Source: Patescibacteria group bacterium
Lineage (GTDB): Bacteria; Patescibacteriota; Minisyncoccia; Minisyncoccales; PEYH01
Direction of reading: 5' to 3'
Length of the DNA: 62,875 nucleotides
Assembly: GCA_018900835.1 (NCBI GenBank)
Contig: JAHIFQ010000014.1
Coordinates: forward strand, 1 to 62,875
Of this stretch, positions 27,550-53,182 are shown in pieces (within the stretch, counting starts at the first letter, position 1; every line of letters begins with the position of its first letter). The translations under genes and the position numbers were made by a program. Below the pieces are notes generated by a model, which was not told where the DNA came from, did no database searches, and was given only the letters and a program-made list of their open reading frames with translations.

Positions 27550-27641
27550 ATTACGAGACTTGGTCTTGTAAACTTCGTAAAACGCCGGAACCCACGCCAG
27601 TATTGAGGATTCTCCCAACCCGCCCGGGGCGGGTAATTTTT
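27550..27641 (+). repeat. Diverged copy (a) of the dual-hairpin REP-like element, lacking the terminal DnaA box
   Basis: attacgagac-ttg-gtcttgtaa ... ccagtattgaggattctcccaa-cccgcccggggcggg-taattttt. Hairpin 1 keeps its pairing with a changed sequence. Confidence 0.75.
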
Positions 27642-27648
27642 GTAATAC

Positions 27649-27724
27649 TATAATCGCTTTGTTAGCGGTTTTTTGCTAAAAACGAGCCAACAAAAATCGC
27701 TTTACAAGTGATTTTTTGCTAAAA
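27649..27724 (+). promoter_or_regulatory. greA leader: -10 box followed by two tandem 30-nt hairpin+U-run units
   Basis: TATAAT at 27649-27654. The units aatcgctttgttagcggttttttgctaaaa (27652-27681) and aatcgctttacaagtgattttttgctaaaa (27695-27724) each form a small stem followed by T6. Confidence 0.45.
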
Positions 27725-27745
27725 TAAAACAACAGAATATTTATA

Positions 27746-28210
27746 ATGCCTATGCCAAGATATTTGACACAAGAGGGTTTGGAAAAATTAAAAAAAGAAT
27801 TAGATTATCTTGAAAACACTAAAAGAAAAGAGCTTGCCAAAACATTGAAGCACGCTATTTCATTTGGCGACCTCAAGGAAAATGCCGCTTACCACGAGGC
27901 AAAGGACGCTCAAGGGTTTTTAGAGTGTAGGATTTCAGAATTGAAGCAAGTTGTCGCTACAGCGGAACTGTGTGACAAAGAATATGCTCCAAAAGGAGAA
28001 GTTCAGATTGGTTCAATGGTTTGGCTTAAATCAAAAAATGGCAAGGAGAAGTTTCAAGTTGTTGGACCAGATGAATCAGATATTTTAAGTGGAAAAATTT
28101 CCTATAAATCACCTCTTGGAGAAATTTTATTGGGAAAGACAAAAGGCGATGAAGTAATTTTAAAAAATTTCGAAGGCAAAATTAGGTATGAAATTGTAAA
28201 AGTTAATTGA
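27746..28210 (+). CDS. greA: Transcription elongation factor GreA
   Basis: 154 aa. GDLKENAAYHEAK coiled-coil tip motif. Confidence 0.92.
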   Translation: MPMPRYLTQEGLEKLKKELDYLENTKRKELAKTLKHAISFGDLKENAAYHEAKDAQGFLECRISELKQVVATAELCDKEYAPKGEVQIGSMVWLKSKNGKEKFQVVGPDESDILSGKISYKSPLGEILLGKTKGDEVILKNFEGKIRYEIVKVN

Positions 28211-28318
28211 CTTTTCCACAACCAATCGCTTTTTGACCAAAATTAGGAGTTAAGGTAAGATAAAGACATTAAATATAATGCTTGCTCTATCAAGGGGCAA
28301 GTTTGTCCTATCAAGTTA

Positions 28319-30421
28319 ATGGCAAAAATCACAAAAGTTAAAAAACGAGACGGGTCAATTGTTGATTTTGAGAAAGAAAAAATAGCAAAGGCCATTTATA
28401 AAGCCATTACTGCAACTGGGCAGGCAGATGGCGTTTTATCTAAAAAACTTTCCAAAAAAGTAGCGGATATTTTGGATAGACGCTTTAAAGAAGCCGAAAT
28501 TCCAAGTGTTGAGCAGATTCAGGACATAGTGGAAGAGGTTTTGATTGCCGAGAATCTTACTGAAACAGCAAGGGCATATATTCTTTACCGAGAACAAAGA
28601 AGGATAACAAGAGAGGCTGTTGCTACGAGCGAAGAAGCGGTTGACAGGGTTGACCAATATCTCGAGCGCCTTGATTGGGAGGTTAAAGAAAATGCCAATA
28701 TGACTTTTTCTTTGCAGGGCCTTAATCATTATGGCGTTTCATATATTGTTAAAAAATATTGGCTGAATAAAATTTATCCAAAGGAAATTAGGCAAGCGGT
28801 TGAGAATAATGATTTTCATATCCATAATTTAGACACTCTGGGACTTTATTGCGCGGGATGGGATTTGTATGATTTTTTACTGCGTGGATTCGGCGGAGCG
28901 CAGGGCAAGGTGGAATCAAAACCACCCAAGCATTTCCGAGCTGTTTTAGGACAGGTGGTAAATTTTCTATATACAGTCCAGGGAGAGATAGCAGGAGCGG
29001 TGGCGTTTTCGAATTTTGACACGCTTTTGGCGCCATTTATCCGTTATGACAATTTAAATTATGAGCAGGTAAAGCAGGCGTTGCAAGAATTTTTGTTCAA
29101 TATGGCTGTGCCTACGAGAGTGGGGTTCCAAAACCCTTTTTCAAATATAACATTGGATTTGAAACCATCTTCAGTGTTTGCAAAGCAACCTGTGATTTGG
29201 GGAGGGAAACCGCAAAAGGAAACATACGGCGAATTTGAGGAAGAGATGAGAATTTTTGATAAGGCGCTATACGAGACTATGCTTGAAGGAGACAGATATG
29301 GTCGGCCTTTTCATTTTCCAATCCCGACAATAAATATAACCAAGGACTTTCCATGGGATGACCCGACCTTTGATTCAATATTTGAGGCCTCGGCAAAATA
29401 CGGAATCAATTATTTCGCAAATTATATAAACTCTGATATGAGCCCAGAGGATGTCAAATCAATGTGCTGTCGCCTTCGGCTGGATATGAAAGAGCTTCAC
29501 AACCGTGGTGGCGGAGGATTGTTTGGCGCAGGGGCGCTCACTGGAAGCATTGGAGTAGTCACTATTAATCTTCCGAAAATTGGCTATCTTTCCAAAACAA
29601 AAAAAGATTTTTTTGAACAGCTTGGCAAGTCAATGGATTTAGCTAAAGAAAGTTTAGAAATCAAAAGAAAAACAATAGAAAACTATATTGAAAAGGGGCT
29701 TTATCCCTACTCAAAATACTATTTAAACGGGGTTAAGCAAGCCAGGGGCGCGTACTATGCCAATCATTTTTCTACCATAGGATTAATCGGGATGAATGAG
29801 GCGCTCGTCAATTTTTTGGGAGAAGATATCGCTTCTGGCAACGGAAGAAAATTTGGTTTAGAGATAATGGATTTTATGAGGGAACGACTTTTGCAATATC
29901 AGAAAGAAACAGAGCATATGTATAATTTGGAAGCAACGCCAGCTGAAAGCACTGCATATCGCTTGGCGCAAAAAGACAAAGAAAAATATGCGGATATCAT
30001 TACTGCTGGCACTACAGAAGTCCCATATTATACCAACTCCAGCCAATTGCCCGTTAATTATACTGATGATGTTTTTGAGGCGTTAAAACTCCAAGATGAA
30101 TTACAATGCAGATACACTGGAGGCACGGTTTTACATATTTTTGCCGGAGAACGATTATCAGGCGCTGAAGCGGTTAAGTCATTAGTAAAAAATGTTTTTA
30201 CTAAATTTAAGCTTCCGTACATTACATTGACGCCAACTTTTTCCATCTGTCCAGTTCACGGATATATAGCTGGCGAACATTTCAAATGTCCAAAGTGCAT
30301 TGTAGAACAGTCGTGCGAAGTTTATTCAAGAGTTGTTGGATATCTCCGCCCAGTAAATCAGTTCAATGTAGGGAAAAGACAGGAGTTTAAAGATAGGAAA
30401 GCATTTAATCTCAAAATATGA
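28319..30421 (+). CDS. nrdD: Anaerobic ribonucleoside-triphosphate reductase (class III)
   Basis: N-terminal ATP-cone, C-terminal Zn-ribbon CPKC, and glycyl-radical motif RVVGYLRPV. Confidence 0.95.
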   Translation: MAKITKVKKRDGSIVDFEKEKIAKAIYKAITATGQADGVLSKKLSKKVADILDRRFKEAEIPSVEQIQDIVEEVLIAENLTETARAYILYREQRRITREAVATSEEAVDRVDQYLERLDWEVKENANMTFSLQGLNHYGVSYIVKKYWLNKIYPKEIRQAVENNDFHIHNLDTLGLYCAGWDLYDFLLRGFGGAQGKVESKPPKHFRAVLGQVVNFLYTVQGEIAGAVAFSNFDTLLAPFIRYDNLNYEQVKQALQEFLFNMAVPTRVGFQNPFSNITLDLKPSSVFAKQPVIWGGKPQKETYGEFEEEMRIFDKALYETMLEGDRYGRPFHFPIPTINITKDFPWDDPTFDSIFEASAKYGINYFANYINSDMSPEDVKSMCCRLRLDMKELHNRGGGGLFGAGALTGSIGVVTINLPKIGYLSKTKKDFFEQLGKSMDLAKESLEIKRKTIENYIEKGLYPYSKYYLNGVKQARGAYYANHFSTIGLIGMNEALVNFLGEDIASGNGRKFGLEIMDFMRERLLQYQKETEHMYNLEATPAESTAYRLAQKDKEKYADIITAGTTEVPYYTNSSQLPVNYTDDVFEALKLQDELQCRYTGGTVLHIFAGERLSGAEAVKSLVKNVFTKFKLPYITLTPTFSICPVHGYIAGEHFKCPKCIVEQSCEVYSRVVGYLRPVNQFNVGKRQEFKDRKAFNLKI

Positions 30422-35849: not shown

Positions 35850-35851
35850 AA

Positions 35852-36853
35852 ATGCCTAAAGTATTTAAAATTATATTTTTTATTTTTTTGACTCTCATAG
35901 TCGGCATATTCGTGTTTTTGTTTGTGGGTAAAGCCACTCCGGCCGAGAACATTACTTGGGGAGTTGTGTTCTCCCAAAAACACGCCGAGCTTCTTGGACT
36001 GGACTGGAAAGCCAACTATCTTGCGATTTTAGACGATTTACAGATTAAAGACCTAAAATTAATCGCTTACTGGGATTTAATAGAAAAAGAGCCTGGAGTT
36101 TTTGATTTTACTGATTTGGATTGGCAGATTGAGGAGGCAGAGAAAGGGGGCGCAGAAGTCCTTTTGGTCATTGGCAAAAAAGTTCCAAGATGGCCTGAAT
36201 GCCATATTCCAGATTGGGCCAAGAGCATGGGAGAAGAAGAATTAGAAGAAAGCATTTTATTGTATTTGGAGCAGTTAATTTTAAAGTACAGAGATTATCC
36301 TGCAATTAAAATGTGGCAAGTTGAAAATGAGCCCTTTTTCCCATTTGGCGAGAATTGTCCATTAATAACAGAAGAATTTTTAGACAAGGAAGTCGGGCTT
36401 GTTAGGGCGCTTGATTATAACAAAAGGCCCATAGTAATTAGCGAGAGCGGGGAATTCCCTTTTTGGTTCAAGGCCGCAAGGCACGGCGATATTGTTGGGC
36501 ATACCCTTTACAGAGTTGTATGGGCAAGCGGTTTCAAAATTTATTTTAGACCGCCGTTTCCAGCTATTTTTTATAATAGAAAATCTTGGTTGATAGATAA
36601 GTTTTTTGATAAAAAAGTTATTTGCGTTGAGCTTCAGGCAGAGCCGTGGGGCCCGACCTTGTTATACGATTCTCCCTTAGAAGAACAGGAAAAATCCGTA
36701 AATTTTCAGAAATTGAAAGGAATAATCCAATTTGCCAAAAATACTGGAACAGATACTTTCTATTTTTGGGGGTCAGAGTGGTGGTATTGGATGAAAGAAA
36801 AACAAAACCAGCCCGAAATCTGGGATGAAATAAAAAATTTGTTATTGCAGTAA
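35852..36853 (+). CDS. Membrane-anchored glycoside hydrolase, clan GH-A (beta/alpha)8-like
   Basis: N-terminal TM helix. WQVENEPFF (NEP acid/base) and VISESGE candidate nucleophile. Confidence 0.55.
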   Translation: MPKVFKIIFFIFLTLIVGIFVFLFVGKATPAENITWGVVFSQKHAELLGLDWKANYLAILDDLQIKDLKLIAYWDLIEKEPGVFDFTDLDWQIEEAEKGGAEVLLVIGKKVPRWPECHIPDWAKSMGEEELEESILLYLEQLILKYRDYPAIKMWQVENEPFFPFGENCPLITEEFLDKEVGLVRALDYNKRPIVISESGEFPFWFKAARHGDIVGHTLYRVVWASGFKIYFRPPFPAIFYNRKSWLIDKFFDKKVICVELQAEPWGPTLLYDSPLEEQEKSVNFQKLKGIIQFAKNTGTDTFYFWGSEWWYWMKEKQNQPEIWDEIKNLLLQ

Positions 36854-36997
36854 TGTTTCCAAGCAAGATTTCATAGCGTTTTCCATCTCGTTTTCTTAAT
36901 AAAACTTTTAGTGTCTTTTTTCTCCATCTCAATTATTTAATAAAATTTCATAGCGTTTTATAACGCGATTTTTTAATAAAATTAAGCATTTCAGGAA

Positions 36998-37108
36998 ATT
37001 ACGAGGCCGGGCCTCGTAATTTTCGTAAAACGCCGGAACCCATACCAGTATTGAGGAATCTCACAACCCGCCCGGGGCGGGTAATTTTTGGGGGAGAGTT
37101 ATCCACAG
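36998..37108 (+). repeat. Dual-hairpin REP-like element copy (b), ends in TTATCCACA
   Basis: attacgaggccgggcctcgtaat...cccgcccggggcgggtaatttttgggggagagttatccacag. Confidence 0.9.
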
Positions 37109-37254
37109 CCCTGAAAAGCTTTTTTAGGGTTTTATAAAATTCATTTTAGGGCGTTGTCGAATCCTTCTTTTTGGCATCGAGAAGCTATTAAACCGCCATG
37201 ATTTATTTGACAACGATTTTAGAAAGTATCAAAATAATATATACCCAAAAAATT

Positions 37255-37641
37255 ATGATAATCAATCCTAAAAAATTATTGAAAAGCTTCCGAGTTGCTT
37301 TTATCGGTCTTCGCATAGGGATTAAAGAGGAGAATACTGTGAGAATCGGAGTAATCATTGCACTAATAGTGGTCTTTTTTATGCTCTATTTCCCGCTTGC
37401 TTTGCAGGAAAGAGCGATAATAACTTTGTGCGTTTTCTTGGTCCTGAGTATTGAGTTAATGAATACTCAAGTAGAAAGAGTAACTAATTTGATAGATAAA
37501 AATCATAATGACGAAATCAGGAAAATCAAAGACCTGGCAGCTGGCGCAGTATTAATGGCCATCATTGGCGCTGGTACAGTGGGAGCATATATTTTTCTGC
37601 CATATATTGTCAGAGCAATATCATCTTTATTTAACCATTAA
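37255..37641 (+). CDS. dgkA: Diacylglycerol/undecaprenol kinase (DgkA family)
   Basis: Start set at MIINPKKLLKSF. ELMNTQVERV and DLAAGAVL motifs. The ORF could extend back to 37198. Confidence 0.75.
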   Translation: MIINPKKLLKSFRVAFIGLRIGIKEENTVRIGVIIALIVVFFMLYFPLALQERAIITLCVFLVLSIELMNTQVERVTNLIDKNHNDEIRKIKDLAAGAVLMAIIGAGTVGAYIFLPYIVRAISSLFNH

Positions 37642-37693
37642 TTAAATCAGCCGTTGAAAGCAATAAAAAAAACTGAAATGGCTGGTCAATAAA

Positions 37694-39070: not shown

Positions 39071-39174
39071 AAACAAAAAATTTCTGATAATTGGCCTTTT
39101 TAAGGTTGACTTTTGGTGTTTTTTGAGCTTAAATTAAGAGAATGAACAGGAATTTAAATTAATTATTTTAACTT

Positions 39175-41862: not shown

Positions 41863-42195
41863 TTGAGTTTAGGTTTGAGAATCTGAAGGACTCGGATTTT
41901 TTGGCCTGAACTCAAGAATCTTGAGTGATGGAATCTCTGTATGGGAGGTGATTGACTTCGAAGAGGAGTTGATAGAGGTAGAGAGCATAGACAAGAGGTG
42001 ATGCACAATGATTGTCTCGGTTTCAGGATTTACATAGCAGGACTCGGTGTTACGAGAATCTTCTACTCGACCATTATCGGGGCGCCTACGGCGCCCCGAA
42101 AGGAAAACTCAATCGTTCTTTGACAACCTCATCGCTTTCTCATATGCATATCTCCGAGAACTATCTTGTAGAGTCATCTCCGAGAAACCCGCCAA

Positions 42196-42227
42196 GAGGC
42201 AGACCCCTGCCTCTATTTTCTTTTTTT
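42196..42227 (+). terminator. Intrinsic terminator closing the clpB 3' non-coding block
   Basis: GAGGCAG-ACCC-CTGCCTC followed by TATTTTCTTTTTTT. Confidence 0.7.
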
Positions 42228-42274
42228 AATATAAAATCTGCCGAGATCGTTTCTCGGCAAAACTTAAAAGAGTA

Positions 42275-42385
42275 ATTACGAGGCCGGGCCTCGTAATTTT
42301 CGTGAAATGGCGGAAGCCATACCAGTATTGAGGATTCTCACAACCCGCCCAGGGCGGGTAATTTTTGGGGGAAAGTTATCCACAG
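42275..42385 (+). repeat. Dual-hairpin REP-like element copy (c), ends in TTATCCACA
   Basis: 111 nt, 110/111 identical to copy (e). Lies 46 nt upstream of the Y1 transposase gene. Confidence 0.92.
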
Positions 42386-42430
42386 GGTATTAATTATTAA
42401 AAATACTCTATTATAGGGTATTATATATGT

Positions 42431-43141
42431 ATGCCGAGAAGAAAAACCGAATTAATTAATGGTGAATTTTACCATATTATAGAGCGAGGAAATGATAGGC
42501 GCAAAATTTTTTTAGATAATGAAGATCGCCTTCGTTTTGTTAATAGTTTATTGGTTTTTAACGACACAGCGCCATCGCCTTGGCAATCTCGCGCTTTTTG
42601 GAAAAAACAGAAAGAATTGTTAAAAATGGACTATAAACCCAAAAATCCATTAGTCGAAATTCATGCGTTTGCTCTCATGGATAATCATTTTCATATCCTT
42701 GTCCGCCAGTTGACGGAAAATGGCATAACAAATTACACAAGAAAACTCGGCGGTTATGCGTATTATTTTAATAAAAAACACAAAAGAACAGGATCTCTTT
42801 TTGAGGGAAGATTCAGGGCTAAGCTTATTCAGACAGAAGTGCAATTAAGAAATAATTTTGTTTATATAAAAACGAATCCGGTTGAGATGGTGGAACCAGA
42901 ATGGAAATCTTGGAAAGTTGTAGATTCTAAACAGGCCACAGATTTTTTAGAAAAAGATTATCGCTGGTCAAGCTACTGGGATTATTTGGGAAAAAATAAT
43001 TTTTCATCTTTAGTTAAAAAAGATTTTTTCTTGAAATTGTTTGATGGAGAACAAAATATTCAGAAGGAAATAAATTCTTGGATATCATCTAAATCAAGTG
43101 TTTTTTCCAGAGGAATGGACAAAGTAGATTTCTTAGAATAA
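42431..43141 (+). CDS. rayT: Y1/HUH tyrosine transposase, IS200-like / REP-associated (RAYT-like)
   Basis: 236 aa. HUH motif DNHFHILV and catalytic-Tyr context NNFVYIKTNPVE. Flanked on both sides by the 111-nt element. Confidence 0.8.
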   Translation: MPRRKTELINGEFYHIIERGNDRRKIFLDNEDRLRFVNSLLVFNDTAPSPWQSRAFWKKQKELLKMDYKPKNPLVEIHAFALMDNHFHILVRQLTENGITNYTRKLGGYAYYFNKKHKRTGSLFEGRFRAKLIQTEVQLRNNFVYIKTNPVEMVEPEWKSWKVVDSKQATDFLEKDYRWSSYWDYLGKNNFSSLVKKDFFLKLFDGEQNIQKEINSWISSKSSVFSRGMDKVDFLE

Positions 43142-43219
43142 TTTATTTCATTTTTCAGAATAATTCATTTTTAATATTTTTTAGAGTAATTTTGGCTCAA
43201 AATTTATTCAATTTTTACG

Positions 43220-43330
43220 ATTACGAGGCCGGGCCTCGTAATTTTCGTGAAATGGCGGAAGTCACGCCAGTATTGAGGATTCTCACAACCCGCCCTGGGC
43301 GGGTAATTTTTGGGGGAAAGTTATCCACAG
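43220..43330 (+). repeat. Dual-hairpin REP-like element copy (d), ends in TTATCCACA
   Basis: 111 nt, 108/111 identical to copy (e). Lies 78 nt downstream of the transposase stop. Confidence 0.92.
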
Positions 43331-43382
43331 ATGTTTTGATGTTTTTATTTGGTTTAATCCATAAAATGCTTTACAATTTTTT

Positions 43383-43448
43383 AATATCCTTCTTTAATAT
43401 CCTTCTTTAATATCTTTTTTTAATATCCTTCTTTAATATCCTTATTTT
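43383..43448 (+). repeat. Five tandem AT-rich 13-mers (aatatccttcttt)
   Basis: Read directly. Ends 10 nt before the ATG at 43459. Confidence 0.9.
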
Positions 43449-43458
43449 AATTAAAATT

Positions 43459-44067
43459 ATGAAAAAGAAATTTTATCTTTTTATTGTTTTGGGGATTTTT
43501 ACTTTAGCCATAATTGGCGTTTTATTGTATTGGGGCTTGAGTGAGGACAAAAATAGGGTGACGCCAGGAGTTAAATTTGAAGCGCCGAAATATTATGTTA
43601 TAAAAGACGGGCCAGATGGCAAGATTGTGGAAAACAAACATGCTGGAATAACTTTCAAAGCGCCAGAAGGATGGAATGTTGAGAAAAAAGAAATAGGGTC
43701 GGATGAGTGGATAGTGAATTTTACTAGTCCAGACGCAACAGTGAGTGAGTCCGGGCTTTTGACGGGTGGTTGTGGGATTAGTGCCTTAATAGAATATCAT
43801 GAAGCAACATTTCGGAGCGTTGTTGATAGAATCAACGATCCAGATAGGTACTCTAAAGAGATATCAGGCAATTATGAGGTTATTAATATAGATGGACACC
43901 AAGCACTTAAAAGAACATTGGACCGTCCAGAATGGGGAATGGCAGTCATGATTCAATTGCCTTTTCAGGACAAGATATTTTCATTTGATACCTTGTTTCT
44001 TCCGAGTGAAGGACAGAGATGTTCTAGCTTGATTGATGAATTTTTGGCAGAAATCTCAATTATTTGA
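43459..44067 (+). CDS. Hypothetical membrane-anchored or secreted protein
   Basis: 202 aa with an N-terminal hydrophobic helix. No recognisable family. Confidence 0.5.
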   Translation: MKKKFYLFIVLGIFTLAIIGVLLYWGLSEDKNRVTPGVKFEAPKYYVIKDGPDGKIVENKHAGITFKAPEGWNVEKKEIGSDEWIVNFTSPDATVSESGLLTGGCGISALIEYHEATFRSVVDRINDPDRYSKEISGNYEVINIDGHQALKRTLDRPEWGMAVMIQLPFQDKIFSFDTLFLPSEGQRCSSLIDEFLAEISII

Positions 44068-44085
44068 TAAATTTTGAGGGAGGAT

Positions 44086-47000
44086 ATGAAAAAAATATAT
44101 TTCTCATTAATTTTTTTAATTTTATTATTAGGAAGTTTTTTATTTAGACCATTATCTATATTTGCGATTGATAATAAAGAATTGACGCAAGAGGAATTAG
44201 ATTCATATATTAAATTAAGCGACACAGACAGAAGAGACATATTGAATACCTTGCCGCAGGTCTTTACTGAAGAATGGATGGACTCTATTGTCCGCGTTGC
44301 GATACCAGAGAAAGAGGCCATAAGTCTTATTATAAGACAAGCGGTCAGGGGGCACATGAGGGATTATTTATTAATTGAGGGACCAAGGGATGTTGGAATA
44401 GAAATTGTAAAATTAGGGTTTAAAATCGGGCAAATGTTTTTGACGAAAAATATTAGTATTAGTGATTTAATCAGCGAATTAGAGAAACTAACAATTAAAG
44501 AATCAGTAAATTATTTGAGCCAATGGCTTAAAGAAAAAGAAATCAAAATAGCAACAGGAAATCTGGATTTTTCCTATGATAATTTTCAAAACAAAAAAGA
44601 AAAACATCAATTTCAATATATTATTCTGTATTCTCCAGAAACCGATGATACTGGGGAAATGGTGATAAAGATTTTTTCTTCTGAACAAATGAGTGCGCCT
44701 GGCTCTTTTGGATCTTTTGCTGGTGGATGGGGAACCGCTTGGAATTATACTAATGAATATGCGCAGGGCAAGAAAATTGCCCCTTTTATTTTAACAATAC
44801 GCGGAGAAATGGAGAGAGCGCGCGTTGGATACTGGCAAAGCGAAATTACTCATAATTATTCTTGGAAATATCAGCCCGAAATTGAACTTGAGTTTCCTCG
44901 CACTGTTCCGTATTTTGATTTTCGCGAAAAAGGATTTTTTGAAAAGCTCGGAGACCAAATCAAAGAATTTTTTGGAAGAATAGGCGACCTTTTCTCTGGG
45001 GCTTCGTTGACAGGAGTTCCTGATATAGAAAAGAATCAAGATGGGACAATAGATTTGTCCGCGGACAGCGCATTAGGTAAATTTATTGCCAATATACTGG
45101 AACAATTTCGCGCTTTCAGGTCTCTTCTTGGGCAAGCTCAGCTTGATGCTTTAGAAAATCAGGTTCAAGACACAATGACAGAGGATGATTTATTAGCGCT
45201 TTTGGAAAAAATTGAATCTTTACAAGCGCAATTGGCTGCAATGGGAGAGAAAATTAATCTTTTACAGGCCGGAGTGGGAACATCTTCGGACACGACAGAG
45301 CTTAATCCCGCGCAAAACCAGCAAACCAAACAAAATATTTTGATAAATGAGGTTTGCGCTGGCATCAACAATTCTCAAAACGAATTTATTGAAATTTATA
45401 ACCCGAATAATACGCCAATTGATATAAGCGATGATAGTTTTCAACTTCAATTAGTAAGTTCAAGCGACAATGTGACAAAGAAAAAGATTACCTGGACCAA
45501 GAATATTATTCCGGCAAAAGGATATTTTCTCCTGATAGGCGGGGAATTGATAATTAATAATGAGAAAATTCAGGGAGATGCAGTGTTCAGTAGTCAATTG
45601 ACGAGTGTGAGTGGAATTATTCTTTCAGACAAAGAGGGGAATATTTTGGATAAAGTAAGCTGGGGAAGTCCAGAAAAATCACCGCCACAGTCCGCTGTAG
45701 AAAAGCGGGGGAAAATATTACAAAAAGGACTTGAGACCAATAATAGCTTAGAGCGTTCTAACTACATTGACACTAATAATAATTCTGCAGATTTTTCGCT
45801 CAATGAATCGCCTTCACCAGCCAATTCTTTGGGAGAGGAATTTATTTACACCATTCAAGGACAAGGTGGCAATGGCAATGGCGATGATGGCGATGGTGAT
45901 GGCGAAGAAGAGGATGGTCAGTCCGAAAACTCTGACCAACAGCAGAATATTTCTGGCGGAGGCAGCTCTAATAGGCCTATTTGTTCACAGGATAGATTGG
46001 ATAGCCCTGCCAATTCCCCGATTATCATTAACGAGATTGCGTGGATGGGAAGTGAGGCAGGATACATTAATGAATGGATTGAGTTGAAAAATATTTCCGA
46101 TTCTGCAATAAATTTAGAAAATTGGCAACTTTTGGATAAAGCAGAGAACATCCGTATTACATTCAGCGCGAATCACGCCATCCCTGCCCACGGATTTTAT
46201 CTTTTGGAGCGAAGCGACGATGAAGTTGTGCCGAGCGTAAGCGCTGATGTCATTTATACTGGCGCTTTAGCTAATAGCAACGAGAGTTTGCGTCTATTTA
46301 ACAGTAATTGCGATTTAATTGACGAGGTAATGGCAAGCCCGGATTGGTCTGCTGGAGATAACGACACAAAACAGACAATGGAAAGAGGAGATGACCTGTT
46401 GTGGCATGATTATAGCGGACAAGGAAGCGACGGGATTATGGGAACGCCGAGGGCGGAAAATAGCGAAATTATTATTAACAACCAAGGTGAAAATAATGAA
46501 GATGAAGAGGACGATGGAGATGATGGAGATGATGAAGATGAAGAGGACGATGGAGATGATGAAGATGATGAAGATGATGGAAGCGGTGATGATTCAGTTT
46601 CCGCTATAGGATTGGTTATTTCTGAAGTTAGAGCTGCTGGTATTGAAGAATTTATTGAGATCTATAATCCGCTTGAGCAAGAGATTTCTCTTGTTGGGTT
46701 TTATTTCAGTTATTTTTCCGCTGGCCGCGATTGGAATAATCCATTTTTAAACAAAGAGTTTCCGACAAGCACACCTGTGATTGGCGCAAAAGAATATTTT
46801 CTAATAGGATTGGGCGATTATTTAGAAGAAGAATCGGATTGGAAGCCGAATCAAACCAATTTAAGTAGCGACAATGGCGCTGTTGCTTTATTCTCTTGCG
46901 ACCCAAGTCAGGCAACCACTACTCAAATGGCAATAGATTGCAAAATTGACGCTGTTGGCTGGGGCGAACCGCTTGTTTTTGAAACACAGGCAGCAACGAG

Positions 47001-48807
47001 CTCAAGCGATAAAAGTTTGGCGCGGAAATTATCTCCAGACGAAAATGGTTATTTACGATATATAGATACTGATGATAATTATAATGATTTTGAAGAACAG
47101 GAATCTACTCCTAAACAGCAGAACCAATCTGCTTATTCTGATTTAGATAACGATGGCATAATAGATGAGTATGACCCTGTGACAGAAATTTCAAGTGATA
47201 TAATTCTTCCTGCAGGAGAGTATATATTCAAGGACTTGGTTATTATTCAAGGATTCGGCTTGTTCGCTGGTTCAGATATTTTATTGGAAGGGTTTAAGGG
47301 AGTTAAGATAACAGCAGACAATATTAATATTAATGAAGACGCTGGCATTTTTGCCGACAATAATGGCTATGCTTCAGACCAAGGACCTGGAGTAAGTATC
47401 GCAAGCCAGACAGGAGCAAGCCATGGAGGAGTTGGAGGAAGGAATGAAGGTGATCCGAAACTATTTATTTATGGAGATTTAGAATTTCCTATTGAACCAG
47501 GGTCTGGGGCTTTAGGCAATCCTGAAGTTCCGCGCTTAAGTCCGTATCGGCCAGGAGGAGCAGGCGGAGGAGCTATTGTTTTAGATGTTCAAGGAGAGTT
47601 GTTGAATAATGGTTTTATCTCGGCCAATGGAGAGGACGGACTCCCTCATGTTACAAGTTATGCTTCCACTGGCGCTGGAAGTGGCGGTTCTGTTTATATA
47701 ACAACAAGCGTCTTATCAGGGACAGGCATTGTTAGGGTAAATGGCGGCGGGTCTTCGCGTAGCTCCGGGGCTGGCGGAGGCGGAAGAATTGCGGTCTATT
47801 ATGATACGAATAATTTTGCTGGGAATATTCAAGCATTCGGCGGAGAGGATGCTAATAATATTCTTAATGGAGGTCCGGGAACTGTTTTTATGAGTCAGGG
47901 AGAAATAGGAAATTTGGTTATTGATAATAATGCACGAGAGGGAGTGACAGCTTTGAGTAATGATAGTTATGTTTTTGGCGATATAATTGTTAGTGGAGGC
48001 GCAAATTTTTATCTGCCTGACCAGTTGAGTTGCGCGAATTTTGATGTTCAAAACAGCGCTGTTTTAATAGCAATAGATAATGCAACAATAAATATTAGTA
48101 ATGCGTTTAATTTAAATCAATCTCAACTTATTGGCGAAAACCAAAAAATCGTGACTATTGAAGGTAATGAAATCACATTAGTAGAGAGTGAAATCTTGGC
48201 AAATGTTTTTGTTCAAACCAACTCTTTGACAATAGATAGCGGTTCTGCGATTTTATCCACAGGCCTTGGTTATGTTTTTGAAGAAGGCCCTGGAGCTGGG
48301 ATTAATGCTTATGGTGGGAGTTATGGTGGATTGGGAGGCAGAAATTATGAATCATCCGGATTTGGACAACCATATGGGATTGAGGAAATGCCAGATGATT
48401 TTGGTTCGGGCGGAGGAAATGGAAACGAAGTTAGAAAAGGAGAGAGTGGCGGCGGGAAAATTATTATAATTAGCGTAGGCGAAATTGTTATTGACGGTGC
48501 GATTTCATCTAACGGTAATAATGGTCTTCCGCATATTACGAGCTATCCAGCGAGCGGAGCTGGAAGCGGAGGAACTATTTATCTTTCTGCCAGCGTTGTT
48601 AATGGTGTGGGTACTGTGTCTGCGAATGGAGGGTCAGCGTCTTCAATCGGTGGTGGAGGCGGAGGAGGAAGAATTGCGATTTATGGAAATATAGGTGGTT
48701 TTACTGGAATTATTGAGGCGCTTGGAGGAAAGAATTCAACAAATGCGTATTACGACGGAGAGGATGGAACAGTATTTTTGGGTTCTGGCGATTTTGAACC
48801 GAATTAA
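44086..48807 (+). CDS. Giant secreted/surface protein with three lamin-tail domains, acidic linkers and a duplicated Gly-rich beta-helix-like C-terminus
   Basis: Start at the ATG after the GGGAGG SD. LTD signatures INEVCAG...NEFIEIYNP, INEIAWMG...NEWIELKN, ISEVRAAGIEEFIEIYNP. D/E/G linkers, a DLDNDGIIDEYDP Ca-binding-like motif, and two GAGSGG...GGGGRIA(V/I)Y modules. Confidence 0.8.
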   Translation: MKKIYFSLIFLILLLGSFLFRPLSIFAIDNKELTQEELDSYIKLSDTDRRDILNTLPQVFTEEWMDSIVRVAIPEKEAISLIIRQAVRGHMRDYLLIEGPRDVGIEIVKLGFKIGQMFLTKNISISDLISELEKLTIKESVNYLSQWLKEKEIKIATGNLDFSYDNFQNKKEKHQFQYIILYSPETDDTGEMVIKIFSSEQMSAPGSFGSFAGGWGTAWNYTNEYAQGKKIAPFILTIRGEMERARVGYWQSEITHNYSWKYQPEIELEFPRTVPYFDFREKGFFEKLGDQIKEFFGRIGDLFSGASLTGVPDIEKNQDGTIDLSADSALGKFIANILEQFRAFRSLLGQAQLDALENQVQDTMTEDDLLALLEKIESLQAQLAAMGEKINLLQAGVGTSSDTTELNPAQNQQTKQNILINEVCAGINNSQNEFIEIYNPNNTPIDISDDSFQLQLVSSSDNVTKKKITWTKNIIPAKGYFLLIGGELIINNEKIQGDAVFSSQLTSVSGIILSDKEGNILDKVSWGSPEKSPPQSAVEKRGKILQKGLETNNSLERSNYIDTNNNSADFSLNESPSPANSLGEEFIYTIQGQGGNGNGDDGDGDGEEEDGQSENSDQQQNISGGGSSNRPICSQDRLDSPANSPIIINEIAWMGSEAGYINEWIELKNISDSAINLENWQLLDKAENIRITFSANHAIPAHGFYLLERSDDEVVPSVSADVIYTGALANSNESLRLFNSNCDLIDEVMASPDWSAGDNDTKQTMERGDDLLWHDYSGQGSDGIMGTPRAENSEIIINNQGENNEDEEDDGDDGDDEDEEDDGDDEDDEDDGSGDDSVSAIGLVISEVRAAGIEEFIEIYNPLEQEISLVGFYFSYFSAGRDWNNPFLNKEFPTSTPVIGAKEYFLIGLGDYLEEESDWKPNQTNLSSDNGAVALFSCDPSQATTTQMAIDCKIDAVGWGEPLVFETQAATSSSDKSLARKLSPDENGYLRYIDTDDNYNDFEEQESTPKQQNQSAYSDLDNDGIIDEYDPVTEISSDIILPAGEYIFKDLVIIQGFGLFAGSDILLEGFKGVKITADNININEDAGIFADNNGYASDQGPGVSIASQTGASHGGVGGRNEGDPKLFIYGDLEFPIEPGSGALGNPEVPRLSPYRPGGAGGGAIVLDVQGELLNNGFISANGEDGLPHVTSYASTGAGSGGSVYITTSVLSGTGIVRVNGGGSSRSSGAGGGGRIAVYYDTNNFAGNIQAFGGEDANNILNGGPGTVFMSQGEIGNLVIDNNAREGVTALSNDSYVFGDIIVSGGANFYLPDQLSCANFDVQNSAVLIAIDNATINISNAFNLNQSQLIGENQKIVTIEGNEITLVESEILANVFVQTNSLTIDSGSAILSTGLGYVFEEGPGAGINAYGGSYGGLGGRNYESSGFGQPYGIEEMPDDFGSGGGNGNEVRKGESGGGKIIIISVGEIVIDGAISSNGNNGLPHITSYPASGAGSGGTIYLSASVVNGVGTVSANGGSASSIGGGGGGGRIAIYGNIGGFTGIIEALGGKNSTNAYYDGEDGTVFLGSGDFEPN

Positions 48808-48838
48808 ACGACCAAATTAAACAATCGACTAAAAACAA

Positions 48839-48949
48839 ATTACGAGGCCGGGCCTCGTAATTTTCGTGAAATGGCGGAAGCCATACCAGTATTGAGGATT
48901 CTCACAACCCGCCCTGGGCGGGTAATTTTTGGGGGAAAGTTATCCACAG
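48839..48949 (+). repeat. Dual-hairpin REP-like element copy (e), ends in TTATCCACA
   Basis: 111 nt, 31 nt after the giant gene stop. Confidence 0.92.
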
Positions 48950-49089
48950 GGGTAGATGGCGAGTTTTAAAATTTTTGGACTTGTAATTTTTAATTTTGGA
49001 ATTTTTGACATTGTAATTTTTTGGGTCAGCATCTTTGCCTCATACAATATTCGCTTTTTTATATTATCTTTGTTAGAATAATATTTACT

Positions 49090-50199
49090 ATGAATACAGA
49101 TAATCTTAAACCAGAATATGTCATCACAGTTACAGATTCCAATATCGGGATGGAGGGTTATTTAGTTATTGATAATACTTTATTAGGACCTGGGAAGGGT
49201 GGAATAAGGATGACGCCAGAAGTTACATTAGAGGAGGTTGCTAGATTGGCCAGAGTAATGACTTGGAAAAATGCTTTAGCTGGAATACCTTTTGGCGGCG
49301 CAAAAGCTGGTATCAAATGGAATGGCGGTCCTGATGAATTAAAAAAACAATTTATAGAGAGTTTTGCGAAAAAGATTAAAATGTTTATTCCGAATCTATA
49401 TATTGCAGGACCAGATGTGAATACTGGAGAAAAGGAAATGAAATGGTTTATTGAAGCCACTGGAATATTTAAGTCAGCAACTGGTAAGCCAATCACTTGT
49501 TGCGAGGGTGTAGGTTGCGGCATTCCTCACGAAGTTGGAAGTACTGGCTTTGGCGTAGCTCAAGCAACTAAGGTTGCGGCAAGCATCTTGGGTATTGATA
49601 TTAAAGGAGCTACTGTTTCTATCCATGGTTTTGGAAATGTTGGTACTTTTGTATATAAGTTTTTGACAGAAATGGGAGCCAAGATTATAGCCATAGCAGA
49701 CAAAGATACTGTGCTTTATTCACAAGATGGTTTTGAGCATAATCTAATAAATGAAATTATAGATAAAAAACAAGGACTGATTGATTATGCTGGAAAAGCA
49801 GAAAGATTATCGCATGAGAAATTTTGGAAAATTCCAGTAGACATTATGATCCCAGCATCAGTGACAGATGTGATTCATAAAGGAAATAAGGATGATATAA
49901 GAACTAAAATGATAATAGAAGGGGCTAATATTCCTATGACTGAAGAAATAGAAGAAGAGTTAGGACAAAGAGGAATATTGGTGGTTCCAGATTTTGTTGC
50001 TAATGCAGGAGGAGTTATTTCCTCTTATTCAGAACATGCTGGCCATAGCATAGAAGAAATGTTTGAATCTGTAAGAGAAAAGATAACTAATATTACTCAA
50101 AGCGTATGTGAAAGTTGTTTAAAATATAAACATAATCCTCGAAAAGTTGCCTTAAGTATTGCGCAAGAAAGATTGAAGCAATGTAATAAAGAACTGTAA
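49090..50199 (+). CDS. gdh: Glutamate (Glu/Leu/Phe/Val family) dehydrogenase
   Basis: Start at MNTDNLKPEY. GPGKGGIRM catalytic Lys region and GFGNVG dinucleotide fold. Confidence 0.9.
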   Translation: MNTDNLKPEYVITVTDSNIGMEGYLVIDNTLLGPGKGGIRMTPEVTLEEVARLARVMTWKNALAGIPFGGAKAGIKWNGGPDELKKQFIESFAKKIKMFIPNLYIAGPDVNTGEKEMKWFIEATGIFKSATGKPITCCEGVGCGIPHEVGSTGFGVAQATKVAASILGIDIKGATVSIHGFGNVGTFVYKFLTEMGAKIIAIADKDTVLYSQDGFEHNLINEIIDKKQGLIDYAGKAERLSHEKFWKIPVDIMIPASVTDVIHKGNKDDIRTKMIIEGANIPMTEEIEEELGQRGILVVPDFVANAGGVISSYSEHAGHSIEEMFESVREKITNITQSVCESCLKYKHNPRKVALSIAQERLKQCNKEL

Positions 50200-50337
50200 C
50201 CCGCCCGGGGCGGGTAATTTTTATCTGTAACGAGGCCGGGCCTCGTAATTTTCGTGAAATGGCGGAAGCCATACCAGTATTGAGGATTCTCACAACCCGC
50301 CCTGGGCGGGTAATTTTTGGGGAAAAGTTATCCACAG
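50200..50337 (+). repeat. Solo hairpin-2 unit plus dual-hairpin REP-like element copy (f), ends in TTATCCACA
   Basis: cccgcccggggcgggtaattttt abuts the gdh stop. A full copy follows (taacgaggccgggcctcgtaat...gttatccacag). Confidence 0.88.
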
Positions 50338-50466
50338 CCATTTTTTCGTCATTTTTTCGTAATTCTTTCTAATTTTTTCGTAATTCTTTCGATCGTTTTA
50401 ATTAAGATAAAATTTGCTCCAGTTCTGCCGAGATCATTTCTCGGCAAGATTGTTTTTATAAAATTG

Positions 50467-50494
50467 TTGACTTTGGATGATATGTGAGTAATAT
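50467..50494 (+). promoter_or_regulatory. Putative sigma70-type promoter of the orphan gene
   Basis: TTGACT-N16-TAATAT, about 50 nt upstream of a strong AAGGAGG SD. Confidence 0.45.
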
Positions 50495-50545
50495 GACAAT
50501 TACAATAAGATTTTCAAAAATTTCATTGTACCAAAAGGAGGAAAG

Positions 50546-50929
50546 ATGTTAGGAAAGAGAGTTTTTTTAGCGAATGATACTATGAGGGGTAGGCCAAGCG
50601 AGAGAGTTTCTCTTCGGTTCGATATGAAGGATACTATTGATCTTGCTTGCGATTGCGTATATCCTGCACAGGTTTACCATCGCCCCAAGGAATTGAGAGT
50701 ACTCAAGTCGATCGAGGTAAGAGTTGGCGATAATGTCTGGCAACCATACCCAACTATTTCCTGGCTCGATGGGGTCGAGCGCCCTAAACAGCTCGTTACA
50801 AAATCTGTAGTGGTGACTAAAGAAGGAAAGCCATTAGTAGTCAGCACTCAAAACGGAAAGCTGGACGAGACGCTGACAAGAGAAGCGGAGAAAGAAGGAG
50901 TCTGCGTTGAATATCTTGACGGATTGTGA
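50546..50929 (+). CDS. Hypothetical 127-aa protein, GC-richer than its surroundings
   Basis: AAGGAGGAAAG SD 3 nt before the ATG, with its own promoter and terminator. No recognisable family. Confidence 0.55.
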   Translation: MLGKRVFLANDTMRGRPSERVSLRFDMKDTIDLACDCVYPAQVYHRPKELRVLKSIEVRVGDNVWQPYPTISWLDGVERPKQLVTKSVVVTKEGKPLVVSTQNGKLDETLTREAEKEGVCVEYLDGL

Positions 50930-50962
50930 CCTATTACAAATCTGTCTTGGCATCTTGATGCC

Positions 50963-51006
50963 AACGCCTTCTGTGGTCCTCGGACCTCGGAAGGCGTTTT
51001 CTTTTA
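50963..51006 (+). terminator. Intrinsic terminator
   Basis: AACGCCTTC-N18-GAAGGCGTT followed by TTCTTTT. Confidence 0.7.
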
Positions 51007-51112
51007 GTTAAAAAATTTCTCTGTCCGCATTGTCCATTGCCTCAAAATCCAAAAGGTCTTTACAAAAACTTAAAATTGAGTAAAGTAAAGAAAGATAATT
51101 TAACATAAAAAT

Positions 51113-51694
51113 ATGGAGCTTGCTATGTTTCAACAAAGGAGAGGAGTTTTTACAATGGTCTTAGTAGTAGTGTTTGTGTTGGCAGTGGCTTCTACTTTTG
51201 TTTTTCTTAGATTCTCGGGAAAGCTCGCAGAATATAAGATAAATATGTTTTCCAGCATAGGCACAGATAATCTTGTCTTTAATGAGAGCGAGCAAGCAGA
51301 TGAGAAAGAGGATGCGTTTTCCATAGGCATCATTGATAATGGCGCGGAAGAAATCAGTAATATAGATAGTGGCAACGATATCCCTCTTATTATTTCCGCA
51401 GGAAAGAAATATGAAGAGGTTGCCAAAAGCGGAGATGGGATTACACATCTTGCACGAAGGGCTTTAAGAGAATATTTGGATGGAAGTTCGGTCAATCTTA
51501 ACGCAGAGCAAAAGATATTTTGCGAGGACTATATTCAGAATCGCATTGGCGAGAAAGAGATTAAAATAGGGGAAAGTATTGCAATTTCAGAGGATTTAAT
51601 AGCAGAGGCAGTGAATAAATCATTGGGATTGAGCGCAAGTGAGCTTGAAAACCTGAAGAATTTTACAGAATTGGTTTGGGACGCTGATTTCTGA
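51113..51694 (+). CDS. Hypothetical membrane-anchored protein
   Basis: 193 aa with an N-terminal TM helix and an acidic extracytoplasmic part. Confidence 0.5.
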   Translation: MELAMFQQRRGVFTMVLVVVFVLAVASTFVFLRFSGKLAEYKINMFSSIGTDNLVFNESEQADEKEDAFSIGIIDNGAEEISNIDSGNDIPLIISAGKKYEEVAKSGDGITHLARRALREYLDGSSVNLNAEQKIFCEDYIQNRIGEKEIKIGESIAISEDLIAEAVNKSLGLSASELENLKNFTELVWDADF

Positions 51695-51723
51695 ACTTAT
51701 TGAATACCTTTTATTTTTTAACT

Positions 51724-52350
51724 ATGTTCTACAAGGAGGACACTATAAGATTAACAGTTGCTGTGTATCAGGTGACTGGGATTTTTCCTGAAAATGAGCC
51801 CTTAATAGCTCAAATCAGGCAAAAAGCTAATAATGTTTTAGCTGATTTTATCTGTCTGCGGATGAATCCGGGCAACAAAAAAAATATCAGCAAAGGAATT
51901 GAGGTGCTTTTTGCCTATTTTTCCATAGCTGAAAAGCAGAACTGGATTGATAGCAAGAATTTTTTGGTTTTAAGGCGAGAATATAGCAAAATATTGGATT
52001 TTATAAGGAGTTTGCCTGAAAATCCTGTGAAAATAGCAAGAAAAGAAGTAAAAATAATTGAGAAAACGAGTTATCCACAGGTAACTGTGGATAAGAGAGT
52101 GGATAAACAGGTGGATAAGAAACAGGAAAACAGAAATGTTAGCAGGGCTTCGTCTAATCCTTCTGTAAGGCAAAAACAGGTTTTAGAATTGATTAAAACT
52201 AAGAATCAGCTTTCTTTGTCAGAAATCAAGAGTATGTTTTCTTCCTTAAGTTCCAGAACATTGCGTCGGGACTTGAGTTCATTGGTTGATAAGGGGGCAA
52301 TAGACAGAATCAGGGAGGGCAGAGATGATGTTTTATATGTTTTAAAATGA
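51724..52350 (+). CDS. Four-helix-bundle (23S-IVS-protein-like) N-domain fused to a DeoR-like winged HTH
   Basis: C-terminal LSLSEIKSMFSSLSSRTLRRDLSSLVDKGAI. The linker VDKRVDKQVDKK is encoded by a DnaA-box array. The start could be 51700 (TTG). Confidence 0.55.
   Translation: MFYKEDTIRLTVAVYQVTGIFPENEPLIAQIRQKANNVLADFICLRMNPGNKKNISKGIEVLFAYFSIAEKQNWIDSKNFLVLRREYSKILDFIRSLPENPVKIARKEVKIIEKTSYPQVTVDKRVDKQVDKKQENRNVSRASSNPSVRQKQVLELIKTKNQLSLSEIKSMFSSLSSRTLRRDLSSLVDKGAIDRIREGRDDVLYVLK
52071..52118. promoter_or_regulatory. Array of four DnaA-box-like 9-mers inside a CDS, including a perfect inverted pair
   Basis: TTATCCACAG-GTAA-CTGTGGATAA (52071-52094), then GTGGATAA at 52099 and 52111 with 12-nt spacing. 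Confidence 0.6.
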
Positions 52351-52387
52351 AATTGGATTGCGGACAGATGTCGGACATAAAATATAG

Positions 52388-52418
52388 TTGTCCACAATGT
52401 GTCCACAAGTTATCCACA
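52388..52418 (+). promoter_or_regulatory. Three same-orientation DnaA-box-like sites at 11-nt spacing upstream of the sigma factor gene
   Basis: TTGTCCACA (52388), GTGTCCACA (52399), TTATCCACA (52410). Ends 34 nt before the ATG at 52452. Confidence 0.55.
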
Positions 52419-52451
52419 TGTCCAGAAAATTATCCGGGCATTATTGTTTAA

Positions 52452-52955
52452 ATGATAATGGATAAAAAGCAGAAAAAATTTAGCAAGATATACGATAGCT
52501 ATGTAGGGAGCATCTATCGTTTCATTTCTATTAAAGTCAATTCTCAGGAAATTGCCGAGGATTTGACTTCTGAAGTGTTTTTAAAAACATGGAAGAGTTT
52601 TCAACAGCAAAATAAAATCAAAAATCCAAGGGCATATCTTTATACCACTGCCCGGCATATAGTCATTGATTTTTACAGGACCAATAAAGAAGATAGGACA
52701 ATATCAATTGAAGATGTTAGAGAGATAGAGGATATAGCCATTCCAATAGAAGCGCAGGAAAGCCATGATGCTACCATGGAAATCGTAAAACAAGGGCTCA
52801 ACGCGCTTAAAGAGGATTATCAAAATGTCGTTATTTGGCGGTATGTGGATGGATTGTCTATTAATGAAATCGCTAAAATACTTGGAAAATCCAATGGAGC
52901 GACAAGAGTATTGATTCATAGGGCAATGGAACAGCTAAAAGAAAGAGTTCAGTAA
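52452..52955 (+). CDS. ECF-type RNA polymerase sigma-70 family factor
   Basis: 167 aa. Region 2 (PRAYLYTTARHIVIDFYR) and region 4 HTH (LSINEIAKILGKSNGATRVLIHRAM). Confidence 0.85.
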   Translation: MIMDKKQKKFSKIYDSYVGSIYRFISIKVNSQEIAEDLTSEVFLKTWKSFQQQNKIKNPRAYLYTTARHIVIDFYRTNKEDRTISIEDVREIEDIAIPIEAQESHDATMEIVKQGLNALKEDYQNVVIWRYVDGLSINEIAKILGKSNGATRVLIHRAMEQLKERVQ

Positions 52956-52956
52956 A

Positions 52957-53022
52957 ATTTTCAATTTCCAATTTCCAAGTTTCAATTTCCAAGTTTCAAG
53001 TTTTCAATTTACAATTTACAAC
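52957..53022 (+). repeat. T-rich heptanucleotide satellite (ttcaatt/tccaagt units)
   Basis: About 9 imperfect 7-nt units, read directly. Confidence 0.85.
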
Positions 53023-53071
53023 AAAGCTCCAATTTTGAAGTTTTCAAACCGTTTGTTTAGTGTTTTAGAAA

Positions 53072-53182
53072 ATTACGAGGCCGGGCCTCGTAATTTTCGT
53101 AAAACCCCGGAAGCCACGCTAGCATTGAGGATTCTCACAACCCGCCCTGGGCGGGTAATTTTTAGGGGAAAGTTATCCACAG
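53072..53182 (+). repeat. Dual-hairpin REP-like element copy (g), ends in TTATCCACA
   Basis: 111 nt. The central segment is diverged and both hairpins are intact. Confidence 0.9.

Follow-up and report, generated by a model that had tools for sequence, protein, structure and literature searches.

A 62,875-nt contig of a Patescibacteria group bacterium (JAHIFQ010000014.1, assembly GCA_018900835.1; the whole stretch, read on the forward strand, is called the window below) carries seven plus-strand copies, named a to g, of an element that is 111 nt long in its full form and consists of two hairpins, a linker between them and a tail. Copies c and d bracket a gene for a HUH/Y1 protein that resembles the REP-associated tyrosine transposases (RAYTs) of repetitive extragenic palindromic (REP) sequences. 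REP repeats with a domesticated single-strand transposase are well known in E. coli and Pseudomonas and, to our knowledge, nearly all work on REP/RAYT systems concerns Proteobacteria. A REPtron is defined as a Y1 gene with its own dispersed palindromes on either side (PMC3333891). Because the Y1 gene is bracketed by copies c and d and this layout recurs in relatives, we read the locus as a REPtron, in which the element is probably a doublet like those of REPs and bacterial interspersed mosaic elements (BIMEs), maintained in trans by its RAYT via single-strand cutting and rejoining. Its unusual features are a TTAC...GTAA foot, a two-hairpin layout of fixed polarity, a near-absolute strand bias and a DnaA-box tail.

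A preliminary description of this DNA knew of no described family with such a structure and left the element an orphan. It had itself given the name RAYT to the gene that lies between c and d and had not drawn the consequence, namely that a Y1 gene bracketed by its own palindromic repeats is the layout of a REPtron (PMC3333891).

The bracketed gene and its hairpins across lineages

All sequences analysed are metagenome assemblies. Independent NCBI, JGI and ENA assemblies show the same arrangement, which argues against an assembly artefact. The copies and the gene lie in the window as follows (type B denotes the hairpin CCCGCCC-N-GGGCGGG).

Copy a, 27550..27641, plus strand: short form with a degenerate hairpin 1, the linker, hairpin 2 (CCCGCCC-G-GGGCGGG) and TAATTTTT; covariance-model score 102.8 bits
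Copy b, 36998..37108, plus strand: full 111 nt, between a GH42-like gene and a diacylglycerol kinase gene
Copy c, 42275..42385, plus strand: full element, 46 nt 5′ of the RAYT-like gene
RAYT-like HUH/Y1 gene, 42431..43141, plus strand: 236 aa, flanked by copies c and d; presumably encodes the enzyme that goes with the repeats
Copy d, 43220..43330, plus strand: full element, 79 nt 3′ of the RAYT-like gene; insertion site orthologous in four lineages
Copy e (exemplar), 48839..48949, plus strand: hairpin 1 at 48839-48861, linker at 48862-48906, hairpin 2 at 48907-48923, then TAATTTTT
Tail of copy e, 48931-48949, plus strand: GGGGGAAAGTTATCCACAG, with the DnaA-box consensus TTATCCACA at 48940-48948
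Solo type-B hairpin, 50199..50223, plus strand: ACCCGCCC-G-GGGCGGGT followed by AATTTTT, immediately 3′ of the gdh stop codon; either a solo REP or a terminator
Copy f, 50227..50337, plus strand: full element, beginning GTAACGAGG, not ATTACGAGG
Copy g, 53072..53182, plus strand: full element, 3′ of an extracytoplasmic function (ECF) sigma factor gene

The 236-aa protein has NHFH as its HuH motif and YIKTNP as its Y...NP motif. Its match to Pfam Y1_Tnp is weak (23.2 bits), and all 52 of the homologues scanned match this family. An AlphaFold (AF2) model built from a 52-sequence alignment has a predicted local distance difference test score (pLDDT) of 88.7, and its best PDB match in Foldseek is 4er8 (E 5e-7), in which E. 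coli TnpA-REP is bound to a REP hairpin; IS608 and ISDra2 TnpA come next. The homologues come overwhelmingly from Patescibacteria and Parcubacteria.

We compared the genomic contexts of homologues at 82, 78, 76, 62, 59, 54 and 41% identity; the eight lineages referred to below are the window, L007, L010, L011, L013, L014, L015 and L016. In six lineages, down to 59% identity, the gene lies between ClpB (with or without a hydrolase or peptidase gene) and a 202-aa open reading frame (ORF) plus the LTD giant, and from this shared syntenic position we conclude that it is vertically inherited. Within the fetched DNA, tblastn finds one gene copy per lineage.

The gene is flanked on both sides by a hairpin in eight of eight lineages, two non-syntenic ones included. 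In the three closest relatives these flanks consist of the two-hairpin element with its tail, as in the window; in more distant ones they are single hairpins of lineage-specific sequence. The hairpin sequences are:

Window genome: ACGAGGCC/GGCCTCGT
L011: ACGATGCC/GTGGCGT
L013: CTACGCCGCC/GGTCGCGTAG
L016: CGGAGGAC/GTCCTCCG

In four lineages the lineage's own hairpin also lies in frame within the ORF, at about residues 57-74, and co-varies with the flanking hairpins (L013, 10183-10203; L014, 10198-10214; L015, 10177-10193; L016, 10190-10204). These internal hairpins encode QRGPSSL, QRDPASL, QRDPAAL or IGGQSSD. They are absent from the window gene and from its three closest relatives, and the AF2 model of the window protein has a loop of low confidence at the matching place. 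In-frame REPs within the gene have been reported for TnpA-Y1 (TnpA-REP) subclass 2.4 (PMC6006769). We regard the RAYT-like HUH/Y1 enzyme (42431-43141) as the likely partner of the 111-nt element.

Upstream of copy c, a 410-nt non-coding gap (41863-42274) separates it from ClpB, at a place where relatives have an alpha/beta-hydrolase gene (L007 8590-9561, L010 5130-6068). No hydrolase remnant was detected there by tblastn, and an 87-aa TTG ORF at 42012-42275 has no family match.

Copies and boundaries in the window

The hairpin 1 pattern (ATTACGAGGCC-N-GGCCTCGTAAT, up to two mismatches) occurs at 36998, 42275, 43220, 48839, 50227 and 53072, always on the plus strand, and never in shuffled sequence. 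A repeat finder returned a single family of seven copies, taking in a diverged one at 27542-27683, and a covariance model built from 40 copies and run with filters off gave exactly seven full-length plus-strand matches in the 62.9 kb window and none further. The seven plus-strand copies of the preliminary description are thereby borne out, as is its dispersed repeat family built of two hairpins. The length of 111 nt applies to six of them; copy a is older, is about 92 nt long, lacks the GGGGGAAAGTTATCCACAG tail and shows 24-30 differences from the others. Realignment gave the same counts as before for copies c and e (1 of 111 nt) and for d and e (3 nt), and the solo hairpin reported at 50200 is present.

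In a seven-way alignment the left edge of similarity is sharp at ATTACGAG; the right edge is ...TTATCCACAG (CCACAG) in the long form and GTAATTTTT in copy a. The flanking sequences of the seven copies are unrelated to one another, and the copies are therefore not segmental duplications. All seven are intergenic, between plus-strand genes, and lie 3′ of a plus-strand gene, as had been described. Neighbouring copies are 0.9 to 9.4 kb apart with 1-9 genes per interval, so that to see the element as partitioning the region or delimiting single modules was an over-reading. Nor is each copy followed by a distinct AT-rich tandem repeat: such repeats are seen 3′ of copies d, e, f and g only. As they are also seen 5′ of d and g and at other places, they belong to intergenic DNA in general rather than to the element.

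Anatomy of the hairpins and linker

We based the anatomy on an alignment of 40 distinct copies, in which hairpin 1 is 97.8% paired and hairpin 2 90.9% paired. Changes on both sides of a pair are found at four pairs in each hairpin, and none of 500 shuffles was as good as the observed alignment; both hairpins are backed by compensatory changes. The 44-nt linker, once described as a 46-nt variable core, is well conserved in sequence, both within the genome and between species. A structured linker was rejected: the only helix proposed there by RNAalifold has no compensatory change and is broken by variation.

The two hairpins share the foot (T)TAC...GTAATTTT. Most stems are perfect palindromes, and GTAA or GTAG is found 3′ of the hairpin on the top strand. 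In the window genome all 13 copies carry a hairpin 2 of type B with the same foot AC...GTAATTTTT, and solo type-B hairpins also occur 5′ of several copies. In relatives the sequence of hairpin 2 is that of hairpin 1 (type A, ACGAGGCC...). L048 (5297-5422) has type-B stems in both hairpins and the DnaA-box motif inverted in its tail (TGTGGATAA), and at L007 9865 the two hairpins are exact reverse complements of each other. When hairpin orientation was tested, the stems were nearly palindromic and the loop bases mixed, and the asymmetric hairpins of L011 were direct repeats. Strand-specific folding from G.T wobbles (L011, L013) was considered and dropped, as both strands fold equally with DNA and with RNA parameters.

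A scan of positions 36000-54000 flagged hairpin 2 as terminator-like in copies b to g and in the solo hairpin; copy a, outside this range, has the same hairpin 2 followed by TAATTT. Of the two hairpins, both described earlier as resembling terminators, hairpin 2 with TAATTTTT does score as an intrinsic terminator, and hairpin 1 is trailed by a run of only four Ts. Judged from its sequence, hairpin 2 probably also acts as a terminator for the host. Rfam at the gathering threshold gave tRNA-Leu only over the window, and at E≤1 no family across copies e and f. The anatomy led us to reject an integron attC site, given two separate short hairpins and no integrase among the window genes, and likewise a CRISPR reading.

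Other small hairpin repeats accompany the element. The repeat CCGAGA-TC(G/A)T-TTCTCGG lies at window positions 42241-42258 and 50428-50445 and often adjoins the main element; it is also found beside elements in L001, L002, L003 and L023, with tandem half-copies in L001 and L002. A third hairpin repeat, AATGTTTGGAGGT-NNN-ACCTCCAAACATT, occurs at 58876-58920 and at about 240-275 of L003, another contig of the same population. The palindrome CCCGCCCGAGGCGGG at 58983-58997 resembles type B.

The tail and its DnaA box

The tail is 19 nt long, GGGG(G/A)AAAG-TTATCCACA-G, and across species it is more conserved than the stems. TTATCCACA fits the DnaA-box 9-mer TT[AT]TNCACA (consensus as quoted in PMC6006769) and is present in 6 of the 7 window copies and in most copies elsewhere. 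The tail variants TTTTCCACA, seen in at least three independent lineages, and TTATTCACA differ mainly at the two degenerate positions of that consensus. In relatives of 59-62% identity, TTATCCACAG or TTTTCCACAG directly adjoins the flanking hairpin. This pattern makes the tail a presumed site for a host factor, DnaA being the obvious one to consider. The tail GGGGGAAAG does not match the TIRYT motif GGGGWSAS (PMC3733652).

We found no support for a DnaA-like C-terminal domain in the enzyme. Pfam returned Y1_Tnp only on the 52 homologues, and hhalign against E. coli DnaA domain IV gave a probability of 0.13. The C-terminus modelled alone reaches a pLDDT of 54 and packs confidently in the full model, and is therefore not an autonomous domain.

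The motif also occurs free of hairpins. The window holds 12 perfect TTATCCACA sites against 0.58 expected. At 52071-52118, GTTATCCACAG and three inverted GTGGATAA repeats lie in the linker-coding part of a DeoR-type helix-turn-helix (HTH) gene (51700-52350), and three phased TGTCCACA/TTATCCACA boxes with 11-nt spacing lie at 52386-52418, just 5′ of the ECF sigma gene (52452). The boxes 5′ of the sigma gene are kept in L010 and the intragenic pair in L013.

Dispersal, homogenisation and polarity

The family extends beyond this locus. Five more copies came from an exact-pattern scan, on three other contigs of equal GC content from one metagenome, taken as the same population, and nhmmer added a sixth. 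Among species-representative genomes, the hairpin 1 pattern has 35 loci in six Patescibacteria metagenome-assembled genomes (MAGs); four of the six hold about 30 more complete elements built in the same way and the other two solo hairpins only. Together, other contigs and at least four other Patescibacteria MAGs contribute about 40 copies beyond those of the window. The window-type hairpin 2 pattern gave nothing in the genome scan. These copy numbers, from scans of contigs and fetched stretches, are lower bounds. All but two family copies lie between ORFs. Searches of phages and plasmids by blastn and a scan of viral contigs gave no match, and there is thus no sign of an origin on a mobile replicon.

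For several copies the orthologous intergenic site is occupied in other species too, so that not all are recent arrivals. The intergenic site of copy b is also filled in a related species (L007 3385-3493), and copy d lies at the same junction in four lineages with both flanks alignable. The recent spread proposed earlier agrees in part with these data: the near-identity of copies fits either recent copying or homogenisation. The hairpin 2 of copy d is of the CCCGCCC type, like the 13 copies of its own genome, and its orthologues have the ACGAGG type. Copies within the window genome are 81-99% identical (86-99% without copy a), and orthologous copies 72-83%. As identity within the genome exceeds that between orthologues, we conclude that the copies undergo concerted evolution, in which some process overwrites them in place. 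L010 has a pair of copies, separated by 9.5 kb, that share 98% identity and are unlike their neighbours.

Between two gene orthologues, L010 has an element where the window has none, and at the place of window copies e and f it has just a fragment. This pattern of presence and absence is suggestive, with no clean empty site: L010 has about 450 nt of other extra DNA at the site, so no precise junction can be read. Some 500 nt of GC-rich non-coding DNA lies 3′ of the L010 element (15800-16330) and is absent from the orthologous window interval; it has no Rfam match at E≤0.01.

GC skew is positive over the entire window, and the plus strand is therefore leading-strand sequence. The top strand of the element lies on the locally G-rich strand in 49 of 50 copies (about 41 of 42 distinct ones). 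The G-rich strand has the sequence of the lagging-strand template, where enzymes of the IS200/IS605 type act. In the three cases where the upstream gene points the opposite way, the copy still follows the skew in two, and the skew is weak there.

Other features of the window

The window genes are ordinary chromosomal ones, among them LeuRS, GlmS, PFOR, ParA, TopA, DprA, FtsA/FtsZ and GreA, and further NrdD, ComEC, HtrA, ClpB, GDH and the ECF sigma factor. A GlmS-like gene at 4541-7891 (GATase and SIS domains) is split by an intein with a LAGLIDADG homing-endonuclease domain and an HTH. At 61891-62038 lie two tandem 74-nt units, 86% identical, each beginning with a GGGGATGAAATCCCCC hairpin and with no long ORFs around them.

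Discussion

In the mechanism that we propose, the enzyme would bind the hairpins on the lagging-strand template while this is single-stranded and would cut and rejoin there, so copying, exchanging and homogenising elements in trans. Such a mechanism would explain the near-invariable direction of the copies relative to replication, their greater likeness within a genome than to orthologous copies of sister species, and the hairpin variants that each lineage has as its own. Hairpin 2 with its T-run may serve the upstream gene as a transcription terminator or 3′-end stabiliser, and the tail could bind DnaA or some other host factor. What the sequences and the protein model show are the repeats with their structure and covariation, their dispersal, the constant association of gene and repeat, and the protein fold; catalysis on these hairpins, transposition or conversion through single strands, termination and DnaA binding are inferred. 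A bolder version, which we think rather unlikely, would have strand-locked, domesticated REP doublets with a genuine DnaA box as their tail: the RAYT would maintain terminator-plus-DnaA-site cassettes on the ~1 Mb Patescibacteria chromosome and couple copying to DnaA titration or replication control, or conversely DnaA unwinding would expose the hairpins to the enzyme.

Several observations weigh against the REPtron reading. The copy number is modest, at least 13 in the window population and about 15-20 per related genome, whereas classical REPs number hundreds. No clean pair of a filled and an empty site was found that would show mobility directly. The polarity is confounded with gene direction, the upstream gene being co-oriented in 43 of 46 cases; because gene orientation is almost equally correlated, explanations by skew and by gene direction are inseparable on the present copies. 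The two hairpins are not clearly inverted as they are in BIMEs and REPINs, the L011 pair being direct repeats, and the canonical REP foot 5′ GT[AG]G is absent, the foot here being (A)TTAC...GTAA(T). A link between tail and enzyme was not found; no DnaA-like domain was detected in the enzyme (no Bac_DnaA_C signal). Finally, the protein scores 32.8 bits against NCBIfam REP_Tyr_transpos, where the cut-off is 80, and is therefore a distant relative and not an equivalog.

Some of these observations could also be read without a transposase. The element may be a host regulatory cassette, an intergenic double terminator with a site for DnaA or another factor, spread and homogenised by ordinary recombination and kept by selection, the RAYT-like gene being merely another gene with a cassette on each side. 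That hairpin 2 is terminator-like in all copies, that the solo copy ends gdh, and that upstream genes are so consistently co-oriented would fit this, as would the retention of several copies at orthologous sites across species and the hairpin-free occurrence of the tail motif in and beside HTH and sigma genes. We nevertheless hold it to be unlikely, as terminator function explains neither the hairpins on both sides of the transposase gene in eight lineages, two of them non-syntenic, nor the shift of hairpin sequence with protein lineage, nor the matching hairpin inside the ORF of four lineages. Moreover, 7 of the 13 or more known copies cluster in the 26 kb surrounding the gene. The alternative of a small RNA gene in many copies, or of a structured RNA acting in cis, about 90-110 nt long, shares the difficulty with protein lineage, both ideas fitting the conserved co-variation of gene and hairpin poorly. 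Two stable hairpins, the second with a U-run like the terminator of a small RNA, co-orientation with transcription and a conserved linker speak for such an RNA. We give it very little credence: the unrelated upstream sequences leave no conserved promoter, the sole proposed linker helix is broken by variation with no compensatory change, Rfam gives no match across copies e and f even at E≤1, and the near-perfect palindromes are common to solo copies and to copies within the ORF.

A third explanation keeps the enzyme and makes copy c, the gene and copy d an autonomous insertion sequence of the IS200/IS605 type, with the other copies as miniature transposase-less derivatives, like palindrome-associated or miniature inverted-repeat transposable elements (PATE/MITE-like). 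Both hairpins do lie on one strand in a fixed order with sharp element boundaries, the near-absolute polarity relative to GC skew is what targeting of the lagging-strand template predicts, and the fold also matches IS608 and ISDra2 TnpA. However, the gene is single-copy in the fetched DNA and occupies one syntenic locus down to 59% identity, which contradicts this explanation. The 236-aa protein has the Y...NP motif of class 2 (TnpA-REP type) and not the Y...Q of IS200 class 1 (PMC6006769), there is no tnpB, the flanks are complete two-hairpin elements rather than one hairpin per end, and the left junction has no conserved target tetranucleotide. We therefore consider an insertion sequence quite improbable and prefer the REPtron.

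If the REPtron reading is right, the partnership of a domesticated transposase with its repeats extends to ultra-small genomes, where each intergenic base is costly. In the open-access literature we found no description of REP/RAYT in the candidate phyla radiation and none of a REP-type element with a DnaA box, though neither search is conclusive. The fixed polarity is an unusually clean handle on the single-strand, lagging-strand-template model, the family displays concerted copy replacement at orthologous sites, and the tail offers a testable link from a mobile repeat to the replication initiator. In practice, copies mark likely transcript ends, and the repeats could break assemblies of Patescibacteria MAGs.

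Comparison with known systems

The closest parallel is E. coli REP/BIME with TnpA-REP (PMC2817692, PMC3333891, 4ER8). Both have a single-copy Y1/HUH gene at a fixed locus bordered by its own palindromes, intergenic dispersal of single hairpins as well as of two-hairpin units whose linkers are conserved, two hairpin types (here A and B, in E. coli y and z) and hairpins that co-evolve with the enzyme, and this is the protein that the fold matches best. Unlike in E. coli, the foot is TTAC...GTAA and not 5′ GTAG, the hairpins are mostly perfect palindromes, and one fixed polarity with a near-total strand bias replaces alternating inverted REPs. There are tens of copies instead of hundreds, in a Patescibacteria host and with a DnaA-box tail.

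With Pseudomonas REPIN-RAYT (PMC3116915) the element shares a REP-hairpin doublet as the replicating unit, a near-identical sequence population within the genome and a vertically inherited, single-copy RAYT. REPINs are inverted REP pairs that form one long hairpin, whereas here the hairpins fold separately around a conserved 44-nt linker and hairpin 2 is not consistently inverted with respect to hairpin 1. TnpA-Y1 subclass 2.4 (PMC6006769) is similar in its NH[IFV]H and Y...NP motifs and in REPs that flank the gene and lie in frame inside it. In our lineages, however, the internal hairpin precedes HuH instead of separating it from Y, and the window gene has none; the likeness is one of motif and layout. 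IS200/IS605 elements and their miniature derivatives likewise have sub-terminal hairpins on one strand, an HUH enzyme for single-strand DNA and an orientation tied to the lagging-strand template. The gene here differs in being domesticated (single-copy, syntenic, Y...NP); a tnpB is lacking, and no tetranucleotide for target or cleavage is conserved.

BIME-1/RIP elements are REP doublets that carry a high-affinity IHF site. BIMEs are reported to bind several host proteins (Nunvar 2010, PMC2817692). Our element would resemble BIME-1/RIP as a REP doublet with a predicted site for a host DNA-binding protein; the site here matches the DnaA box TT[AT]TNCACA and lies in the 3′ tail outside the doublet, not in the linker.

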